Below are positions 15,621-18,190 of a DNA stretch of 18,485 bases, piece after piece. A program made the translations under genes and the position numbers. This DNA is from a virus (lineage: Duplodnaviria; Heunggongvirae; Uroviricota; Caudoviricetes), in IMG/VR virus record IMGVR_UViG_2540341028_000007; one strand, given 5' to 3'. The notes beneath the pieces were generated by a model. The model had not been told where the DNA came from. It saw only the letters and a program-made list of their open reading frames with translations, and made no database searches. Every line of letters starts with the position of its first letter. Position 1 is the first letter of the stretch.

Positions 15621-16255
15621 TTACGCCACTGCAATCTTCAGCAGTTTGATGGCCTGCGAATCGACCAGCATGCCGCCGGTGCGTTTGGTGGTATAAAAAC
15701 CGACAAACGGTTTATTGGTGTACGGGTCACGCAGAATGCGGGTGCCGATACGGTCAACGATGGTGTAACCCCGTTTGAAGTTACCAAATGCAATGGCTTT
15801 CGCATCAGCGGCGATATCCGGCATCTGTTCGTTTTCAGCGATACCGTAACCCGCCAGAGAGGACGGCTGCCCCAGCTCCAGCCCCGGACGCCACAGATAG
15901 TTACCCTCGCTGTCTTTCAGCAGACGGATGGCAAACAGGCTATTGTTGTTCATCATGAACTTCGCGCCGGTGCGGTGTGCCTTACGCAGCGTGTAAATCA
16001 GTTTGATAATGGCGTCTGCGGTCACCGCCGTCGCGTCGCCGGATACAATATGCTGAAGTTTGCCGAACGCCCGGACCTTATCGGTTTCATCCGTGGATTC
16101 ATTCGCCAGGAACCCTTTCGGCTTCTTGGTACCATCGCCGGTGGTAAAGGCAATTTCTTCCTGTTCGGCAAATTCGGTTGCCAGCTCGCTGTTGATCCAT
16201 GCTTCCACGTTGAAAAAGGCATCATCCAGCATTTTCTGGGTGGCCTGCGGGTTAC
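15621..16255 (-). pseudogene. Major capsid protein, HK97 family, C-terminal ~211 codons only; 5' part replaced by IS629
   Basis: ORF-track entry 15621-16232 stays open in frame upstream (…NPQATQK-MLDDAFFNVEAW…) up to the IS629 end at 16255/16256. The C-terminal sequence (…RDPYTNKPFVGFYTTKRTGGMLVDSQAIKLLKIAVA) resembles HK97-fold major capsid proteins. Confidence 0.75.
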
Positions 16256-16309
16256 TGAACCGCCCCGGGAATCCTGGAGACTAAACTCCCTGAGAAAGAG
16301 GTAAACAGG

Positions 16310-16636
16310 ATGACTAAAAATACTCGTTTTTCCCCCGAAGTCCGTCAGAGGGCGATTCGTATGGTTCTGGAAAGTCAGGGCGAATATGACTCACAGTGGG
16401 CGGCAATTTGTTCCATTGCCCCAAAGATTGGCTGTACACCGGAGACTCTGCGTGTCTGGGTACGCCAGCATGAGCGGGATACCGGAGGCGGTGATGGCGG
16501 GCTCACCACCGCTGAACGTCAGCGTCTGAAAGAGCTGGAACGTGAAAATCGTGAACTGCGCCGCAGTAACGATATCCTTCGCCAGGCTTCCGCTTATTTT
16601 GCGAAGGCGGAGTTCGACCGCCTCTGGAAAAAGTGA
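16310..16636 (+). CDS. IS3-family transposase OrfA (IS629-type)
   Basis: 108-aa ORF identical to the one at 256-582; the A-run gaaaaag at 16627-16633 lies at the orfA/orfB overlap where IS3-family -1 frameshifting generates OrfAB. Confidence 0.9.
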
Positions 16637-17523
16637 TGCCACTGCTGGATAAGCTGCGTAAGCTGTACGGGGTCGGACCGGTATGCAGTGAACTACATAT
16701 TGCCCCGTCAACGTATTACCACTGTCAGCAACAGCGACATCATCCTGATAAACGCAGTGCCCGTGCGCAGCGCGATGACTGGCTGAAGAAAGAGATACTG
16801 CGCGTATACGATGGGAATCATCAGGTATACGGTGTGCGTAAAGTCTGGCGTCAGTTGTTACGGGAAGGTATCAGAGTGGCCAGATGCACTGTGGCACGTC
16901 TCATGGCGGTTATGGGACTTGCCGGTGTTCTCCGGGGTAAAAAGGTCCGTACGACCATCAGCCGGAAAGCCGTTGCCGCAGGCGACCGCGTAAACCGTCA
17001 GTTCGTGGCAGAACGACCTGACCAGCTGTGGGTGGCTGATTTTACTTACGTCAGCACATGGCAGGGCTTCGTCTATGTGGCGTTCATTATTGATGTGTTT
17101 GCCGGATACATCGTGGGGTGGCGGGTCTCATCGTCCATGGAAACGACATTCGTGCTGGATGCTCTGGAGCAGGCGTTATGGGCCCGTCGACCGTCCGGCA
17201 CGGTCCATCACAGTGATAAAGGTTCTCAGTATGTATCGCTGGCCTACACACAGCGGCTTAAGGAAGCCGGATTACTGGCATCAACAGGAAGTACAGGCGA
17301 CTCGTATGACAACGCGATGGCGGAGAGCATCAATGGTCTTTACAAAGCGGAGGTAATACACCGTAAGAGCTGGAAAAACCGTGCAGAAGTGGAACTGGCC
17401 ACACTCACGTGGGTGGACTGGTATAATAATCGACGATTGCTGGAAAGGCTGGGCCACATCCCTCCGGCAGAAGCAGAAAAAGCTTATTATGCTTCCATCG
17501 GAAACGATGATCTGGCAGCCTGA
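16633..17523 (+). CDS. IS3-family transposase OrfB (DDE catalytic domain, IS629-type)
   Basis: 296-aa ORF in the -1 frame relative to orfA; sequence [10 protein letters not shown]...[34 protein letters not shown]...[11 protein letters not shown]...[22 protein letters not shown] recognised from memory as IS629 OrfB with the DDE motif region. Confidence 0.9.
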
Positions 17524-17565
17524 GTTCACAGATAAAACACTCTCCAGGAAACCCGGGGCGGTTCA

Positions 17566-18190
17566 GTTCTTCGGTATTCATGGCGCGCTGGCGCTGACCG
17601 CACTGGACAACGGCATTATGACGCTGTGGGCGCTGGAAAATATCGCGACCTATCAGCAATATGGTTCCGTCGAAGCGGCGCTGGCAGCCGGTAAGACCTT
17701 CCATATCTGGGCCAAGCCGATGCTGGACTCCTTTATTTTCCTTGGGGGCAGTGGTGCGACTTTAGGCCTGATCCTGGCTATCTTTATCGCCTCTCGCCGT
17801 GCTGATTATCGTCAGGTGGCAAAACTGGCGCTGCCGTCCGGCATCTTCCAGATTAACGAACCGATTCTGTTTGGTCTGCCAATTATCATGAACCCGGTGA
17901 TGTTTATCCCGTTTGTACTGGTACAACCGATTCTGGCGGCAATCACCCTCGCAGCGTACTACATGGGCATTATTCCTCCGGTGACCAATATTGCACCGTG
18001 GACCATGCCAACCGGTCTGGGAGCCTTCTTTAACACCAACGGTAGCGTCGCTGCATTGCTGGTCGCACTCTTCAACCTTGGTATCGCAACGTTAATTTAT
18101 CTGCCCTTTGTTGTGGTGGCTAACAAAGCGCAAAACGCGATTGATAAAGAAGAGAGCGAAGAAGATATCGCTAACGCCCTGAAATTTTAA
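17566..18190 (+). pseudogene. chbC: PTS chitobiose/cellobiose-specific EIIC component, 3' fragment (last ~207 codons), 5' part removed at the IS629 junction
   Basis: From 17567 the frame reads [56 protein letters not shown]...[22 protein letters not shown], which I recognise as the ChbC C-terminal half. The junction falls inside a codon (g at 17566 would complete a Trp codon). ORF-track entry 17381-18190 starts inside the IS and is not the native start. Confidence 0.85.

Follow-up and report, generated by a model that had tools for sequence, protein, structure and literature searches.

The stretch of DNA described here (IMG/VR virus record IMGVR_UViG_2540341028_000007; 18,485 nucleotides (nt) at its full length, referred to below as the window) raises the question of how a complete copy of the insertion sequence (IS) IS629 came to join the 3' part of a phage major capsid gene to the 3' half of chbC, with no target-site duplication on its two sides. 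The window is the entire draft contig AERO01000013.1 (NZ_AERO01000013; assembly GCA_000193935.2) of Shigella flexneri serotype 6 strain CDC 796-83. We lean, with some reserve, towards the view that the element is a normal and apparently intact IS629 whose two flanks come from two separate transposition events. Its link to chbC is probably, if by no means securely, a further strain-specific exchange between two IS629 copies, a long-range join that rests on the draft assembly. The features that meet at this locus are as follows, with the basis of each in brackets.

15621-16255, leftwards: the 3' 635 nt of the major capsid gene (alignment to the intact gene, Pfam).
16253-16255, without strand: TAC, half of the 3-bp target duplication that arose when IS629 inserted into the capsid gene (partner junction in the relatives L018 and L004, introduced below).
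16256-17565, rightwards: a complete IS629, IS3 family (inverted repeats, open reading frames (ORFs), domains, identity to Shigella copies).
17566-17568, without strand: GTT, native chbC bases and the presumed half target duplication of an IS629 insertion into chbC (intact chbC).
17566-18190, rightwards: the 3' 625 nt of chbC, codons 246-452, with the private substitution P265L (collinear with intact chbC).
18241-18485, rightwards: the 5' part of chbA (coordinates transferred from locus L002).

Nothing within the element departs from IS629 (isoforms IS1203/IS3411; Shigella and enterohaemorrhagic Escherichia coli O157), and only its mismatched flanks are out of the ordinary. It shares with that element its length of 1310 bp, the TG...CA ends (first bases TGAACCGCC, last bases GGCGGTTCA), terminal inverted repeats of about 25 bp (16256-16280 and 17541-17565), the orfA/orfB organization, the ALIL pseudoknot and an rve (DDE) domain. 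A repeat finder extends the arms to 27 nt (16254-16280/17541-17567, 93% complementary), since the two bases next to the element on either side are complementary by chance. By Pfam, orfA (16310-16636) encodes an HTH_Tnp_1 domain and orfB (16633-17523) encodes HTH_21, rve and rve_3 domains; an AAAAAG run lies at the overlap of the two genes, and the IS3-type ALIL frameshift pseudoknot (RF01497) is found at 16591-16707 with 116 bits. Copies of IS629 from S. boydii plasmids and from the plasmid of S. flexneri 64-5500 match the element at 1310 of 1310 positions, and the best E. coli chromosomal copy has 99.4% identity to 16256-17565. The name IS629 rests on those Shigella plasmid copies and on its use in the retrieved passages of PMC4206707, rather than on the ISfinder reference. 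IS629 is multicopy in this lineage, with 10-14 places occupied on each virulence plasmid and three copies within 20 kb of L003, one of the relatives compared below.

The element is preceded by gcgggttac and followed by gttcttcgg. The preliminary description of this DNA had quoted gttac at 16251-16255 and gttct at 17566-17570 and remarked on the missing direct repeat, and both observations are exact: there is neither a 3-bp repeat (tac versus gtt) nor a 4-bp repeat (ttac versus gttc) at 16256-17565. Its naming of the flanks, a truncated HK97-type capsid gene and the 3' half of chbC, is borne out by alignment to intact copies of both genes. The capsid fragment matches positions 86-280 of the 280-position Pfam profile Phage_capsid (PF05065; E = 3.9e-59), and the left flank has 99.8% identity to a prophage of E. 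coli 40EC, where the intact capsid gene (1206 nt, 401 codons) is preceded by the terminase, portal and S78 protease genes. The window aligns to the 40EC gene up to 16255, after which the intact gene reads cgtagatttcc. In E. coli this prophage lies beside the ecp/pao region. On the other side, intact chbC (1359 nt) reads ctgctctg directly followed by gttcttcgg (ctgctctgGTTcttcgg), and the window is collinear with it from 17566 onwards, that is, from 734 nt into the gene. The right flank, chbC together with chbA, has 99.2% nucleotide identity to E. coli over 920 bp, and the chbC fragment, with only codons 246-452 present, covers positions 212-317 of the 319-position PTS_EIIC profile. The gene belongs to the chbBCARFG operon and encodes EIIC of the phosphotransferase system (PTS) for N,N'-diacetylchitobiose.

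The truncated chbC gives rise to 190-aa (amino acid) and 227-aa products, the latter of which begins in the right end of IS629, reads through the chbC fragment and is recorded in GenBank as EFW62226.1. The exact products are on record in the assembly collection only for the window contig and for L016, a Logan contig (SRR4788347), whereas OacC, the acyltransferase of this serotype encoded elsewhere in the window, is on record in 491 blocks of that collection; serotype 6 assemblies therefore seldom have chbC in this allele or configuration. A look-up of the 156-aa C-terminal ORF of chbC returned only E. coli assemblies with a frameshifted chbC. P265L (window position 17625, chbC codon 265) is a private substitution, and L016 matches the window at each of the 918 bases compared, P265L included. 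L016 also continues past the chbA end of the window into GGTAATGCTGCCAACTTACTGATTTA, which we take to be the end of an IS1, about 2 bp beyond the contig end at 18485 (L016 946-975). chbA is thus apparently broken by an IS1 end, and the chb operon would then have been damaged at least twice, by IS629 in chbC and by IS1 in chbA.

The origin of the capsid flank is clearest in three relatives that resolve the capsid-side IS629: L003, the complete chromosome CP026811.1, which is probably that of serotype 6 strain 64-5500, going by a plasmid with a neighbouring accession; L004, a draft contig of CCH060 (AKMW01000021.1); and L018, a provirus contig from IMG/VR. All three have the same junction of the capsid gene with the IS629 left end, and in all three the right end adjoins GTT and the 5' part of an IS66-family tnpA, followed by rtcB', yafP and dinB. 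The right end of the capsid-side copy in these relatives carries a single-nucleotide polymorphism (SNP; ggCtca), read there as GGGGCGGCTCA joined to GTTACCGTGACGG, and the IS629 of the window does not have it. The missing half of the capsid gene was found in L018 by pattern search, as an IS629 right end followed by TAC and cgtagatttccccc, and it is present also in L004; as sequence, the junction is GGGGCGGTTCA joined to TACCGTAGATTTCC. This capsid 5' half, 574 nt long, is found 6,957 bp away from the first IS629 and on the other strand, beside a second and inverted IS629 whose right end carries capsid-5'-GTA and whose left end carries AAC and the 3' part of tnpA. Joining the capsid 5' half of L018 to the 3' half in the window, less one TAC, restores an open gene of 1206 nt with 3 nucleotide differences from 40EC and only 1 from the sister strain L043, and joining the two tnpA parts, less one AAC, restores an intact ORF of 139 aa.

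The half-sites TAC/GTA and AAC/GTT, distributed over two inverted copies, therefore show two insertions that each duplicated 3 bp, as IS629 is known to do, after which recombination between the two IS629 copies inverted about 7 kb. Judged from these junction sequences, the capsid insertion is evidently a normal transposition with a 3-bp TAC duplication, and inversion by recombination between inverted IS629 copies can be regarded as proven for this lineage. A 5-bp GTTAC target duplication, which the relatives seem to offer at first sight (gggttac, IS, gttaccgtg), was considered and rejected, as the right flank consists of native IS66 tnpA and has an AAC partner of its own. Inversions and translocations by recombination between IS copies are well known in Shigella, and the relatives resemble them in their hybrid elements and in the half-site duplications swapped between two copies; the capsid-chbC pair differs in being known from one side only. 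Further variation of the same sort is seen at the IS629 upstream of oacC, where the left flank differs in four of five complete serotype 6 chromosomes, and exchanges of IS629 flanks are therefore frequent.

In the assembly collection, 149 blocks contain the truncated capsid product of 203 aa, so the junction of the capsid gene with the IS629 left end serves as a lineage marker. L043 (Logan ERR5951538, 47-1692) retains the state prior to the IS629 insertion, as it has an intact 401-aa capsid gene, together with the nonsense-split tail sheath gene of the window lineage. Next to that intact capsid gene stands the same truncated protease, a remnant matching positions 75-158 of the 165-position Peptidase_S78 profile; the portal, the terminase and the N-terminus of the protease were therefore lost earlier and at a different IS boundary. 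The preliminary description had attributed the loss of the terminase, portal and protease genes and of the capsid 5' part to the event at this IS629, an account that does not agree with L043, nor with the relatives in which the capsid 5' half and the protease remnant persist, inverted and 7 kb away.

For the window itself we favor the following course of events. In a decayed, SfII-like prophage with oacC, the capsid gene first received an IS629, with a 3-bp TAC duplication, the step that the relatives display; another IS629 would have inserted into chbC at GTT; and homologous recombination between the capsid copy and the chbC copy would then have swapped their outer flanks, giving the order capsid 3' part, IS629, chbC 3' part. 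Such an exchange would also leave a reciprocal junction elsewhere, with the chbC 5' part next to an IS629. The prophage site (ecp/pao) and chb are about 1.5 Mb apart on the K-12 map. With the two loci so distant, a real exchange would be an inversion or a translocation, and a deletion between them is implausible because a very large part of the chromosome would go with it. Among the routes named in the preliminary description, which were deletion, inversion and recombination between two copies, the exchange between two copies thus stands and deletion does not. The exchange inactivates nothing new, as the insertions had broken both genes before.

Several observations agree with this course of events. 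Both flanks end exactly at the IS ends and are collinear with intact genes from there on, and the relatives show the same type of exchange directly, with an IS629 within the IS66-family tnpA as the partner. The missing right-end SNP is what is expected if the right part of the window element derives from another copy. Parsimony adds a weak argument: starting from the window order (inverted left IS629, prophage segment, capsid-side copy, chbC), the IS629-chbC junction of L016, described below, could be derived by one deletion from the left end of the left copy to 2 bp past the right end of the capsid-side copy.

Other observations weigh against an exchange with chbC. The contig is a draft from an early assembly that ends at or inside other repeats and yet crosses a 1310-bp multicopy element, and in all three relatives with a resolved capsid-side IS629 that copy leads into IS66 tnpA rather than chbC. 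The pair of junctions linking capsid, IS629 and chbC is present in none of 5,426 complete E. coli genomes; the IS629-chbC junction has no matches in a pattern scan of IMG/VR and none in the GTDB species representatives or the JGI metagenomes, in both of which Shigella is apparently unrepresented. The reciprocal junction, chbC 5'-GTT next to the IS629 left end (CCACTGCTCTGGTT joined to TGAACCGCCCCGGGAATCC), was not found in collections that could hardly contain it. The predicted N-terminal fragment of chbC (ChbC 1-245 with read-through, or 1-246), entered as 10 allelic variants, has no exact match, a result made uninformative by the allele of the lineage not being established, and a homology search with the same fragment returned only full-length or unrelated truncated ChbC clusters. 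Two further look-ups were of little help: the 107-aa connector protein is on record in 47,715 blocks and is too common in E. coli to reach the Shigella genomes, and a spurious 76-aa ORF ending in the left junction is not on record.

The alternative that survives best is an assembly chimera, an artefact that the preliminary description had itself listed among the grounds for refutation, in which both junctions are real and come from two IS629 copies of CDC 796-83, and the assembler left the collapsed repeat on the wrong flank. The capsid-side copy would then lead to IS66 tnpA, as it does concordantly in the three relatives, and chbC would carry an IS629 of its own. The contig, which the window covers whole, begins 636 bp inside an IS629 and stops about 2 bp before the IS1 end, so that the assembler generally failed at repeats; IS629 is highly multicopy here; and the internal element has the plain consensus without the capsid-side SNP, just as a collapsed repeat would give. 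The junction sequences of the contig nevertheless look read-derived, and the odd left junction has a counterpart between finished plasmids; serotype 6 chromosomes truly do differ by IS629 flank exchanges; and an assembler using read pairs could legitimately span 1.3 kb to reach the 920-bp unique chbC-chbA island. A chimera is quite possible, although we rather doubt it.

A second alternative dispenses with a resident IS629 in chbC: the right end of the capsid-side copy would have attacked chbC on the same chromosome, through transposase, with inversion of the DNA between them, either by intramolecular transposition or by an adjacent rearrangement of the IEE type. The right flank does begin at native chbC bases with no trace of other sequence, and the small-offset, end-swapped IS629 junctions of this lineage, described below, suggest transposase-driven intramolecular events. 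The way in which the IS3 family transposes (copy-out/paste-in), however, does not normally give adjacent inversions (PMC9333248, PMC7986276), the absence of the capsid-side SNP means that the right end of that copy was probably not used, and the homologous recombination route is directly visible in the relatives; we consider this route very unlikely. An inversion between the two IS629 copies of the window was also tried and rejected, as the inner flank of the left copy (ctc, then the left end) does not pair with gtt, and that flank is IS630, not chbC. Lastly, a single ordinary insertion with a lost or mutated target duplication, which has nothing in its favor except that one intact IS is present, is refuted by the flank alignments, as each flank is half of a gene and the two genes are unrelated and come from separate regions of the chromosome, and by the true TAC partner of the left junction elsewhere (L018); as the preliminary description had argued, a simple insertion cannot give such flanks, the ends being those of two different IS629 insertions.

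The remaining parts of the contig contain a second, partial IS629, oacC and the other genes of the prophage remnant.

1-636, leftwards: partial IS629, the left-end 636 bp, inverted relative to the complete copy, with the contig beginning inside it (100% identity to the reverse complement of 16256-16891).
256-582, leftwards: orfA of the partial IS629 (ORF list).
637-1250, rightwards: what remains of an IS630-like transposase gene that the left IS629 interrupts (collinear with the native element at E. coli locus L020, ggcgCAGAGCCCGC).
1456-2604, rightwards: oacC, the serotype 6 O-antigen O-acyltransferase (Pfam Acyl_transf_3; SGF_00264 in the retrieved passages of PMC4206707).
2884-15572, leftwards: tail, baseplate and head-tail connector genes of a degenerate SfII/SfI-like prophage (ORFs, Pfam labels, phage identity).

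The contig has been published already. In the passages of that paper found by term search (BMC Microbiol 2014;14:266, PMC4206707), AERO01000013 is described as the contig of the oacC-bearing, SfII-like prophage of serotype 6, with oacC (SGF_00264), IS630, IS629 and 19 phage structural ORFs homologous to SfII; oacC was characterised on this very contig, and IS630 is the name used for what we list as the 637-1250 remnant. The same passages are silent on the IS629 junctions, on the absence of a target duplication and on the chbC flank. As far as those passages go, our prophage remnant and the published cryptic prophage share one and the same contig.

The left end of the partial IS629 adjoins GAGCCCGC at 637. 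oacC (1456-2604), a 3/4-O-acetyltransferase gene for the serotype 6 O-antigen, is AT-rich and sits as cargo where the prophage remnant has its tail-fibre end. The prophage genes at 2884-15572 have 95-98% identity to Escherichia and Shigella phages, including SfI, SfII and SfIV. The tail sheath gene (11942-13438; 498 aa when intact) is split by a point mutation into ORFs of 337 and 142 aa, with no indel relative to E. coli 40EC; this split is common to the relatives, and the prophage was therefore defective already. The window differs from all relatives compared by one extra C at 9301, in the spacer between the tape-measure and DNA-circularisation genes, and by SNPs at 9189 and 11696, and these may be either draft sequencing errors or strain-specific changes.

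A further feature of this lineage is the presence of IS629 junctions at which the two ends of the element appear swapped, with an offset of 2-4 bp. There are three such cases, two around the window contig and one between finished S. boydii plasmids. In the first, the left IS629 copy (window 618-646) is inverted relative to that of seven relatives and its left end lies 2 bp deeper in the IS630 flank: the window reads ggattcccggggcggttca followed by GAGCCC, the seven relatives, with a right end at this place, read ggaaacccggggcggttca followed by CAGAGCCC, and the native sequence is ggcgCAGAGCCC (comparison of L029 at 9140-9190, L030 and L022-L028). In the second, TCTTCGG follows an inverted IS629 left end in L016 (positions 1-40), a junction that lies 2 bp beyond the place where, in the window, the right end is followed by GTTCTTCGG (17560-17575). 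The third is found in the comparison of NC_007608.1 (24644-28394) with NZ_CP068091.1 (110782-112091; L047 and L052), where the ends are swapped with a 4-bp offset: one plasmid has a right end followed by AAGC and CTTATAAG, and the other has an inverted left end followed directly by CTTATAAG and is missing 3.75 kb that include the resident, divergent IS629. This is the only end-swapped pair among 12 flank pairs shared by three plasmids.

Such junctions are beyond the reach of homologous recombination inside the IS. For the 2-bp offset, models of an in-place flip of IS629, of recombination in the 14-bp identical tips of the inverted repeats and of slippage were tried, and none fits all of the bases. 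The junctions do fit an inverted IS629 that makes an adjacent deletion or inversion with its far end shortly beyond the right end of the next copy. This recalls the inverted-repeat targeting described for IS30 and IS911, in which insertion or strand transfer takes place directly next to one end of an already resident copy of that IS (PMC9333248, PMC7986276), in that the IS629 junctions lie 2-4 bp beyond a resident right end; it differs in that the published products are abutted left and right inverted repeats, whereas in the IS629 cases the incoming left end has been joined to the flank, with loss of the resident copy. That IS629 in this lineage repeatedly makes transposase-driven, end-targeted intramolecular rearrangements is a tentative proposal built on these three cases, and one that we think rather unlikely to be correct.

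The exchange of flanks between IS copies is textbook behavior for Shigella, and on a contig already published it is no new kind of system. What the locus illustrates is that the IS629 landscape around the oacC prophage remnant of serotype 6 is very fluid, that chbC is one more IS-inactivated catabolic gene, and that gene neighbourhoods reaching across IS copies in draft Shigella contigs are untrustworthy without long reads. Wider interest attaches only to the end-swapped IS629 junctions with their 2-4 bp offset, which could reflect end-targeted intramolecular transposition in nature. If that were true, end-targeted rearrangement would indirectly support the physical link of capsid and chbC in the contig, and the junctions would be a natural footprint of adjacent deletion or inversion, targeted to inverted repeats, by an element of the IS3 family.

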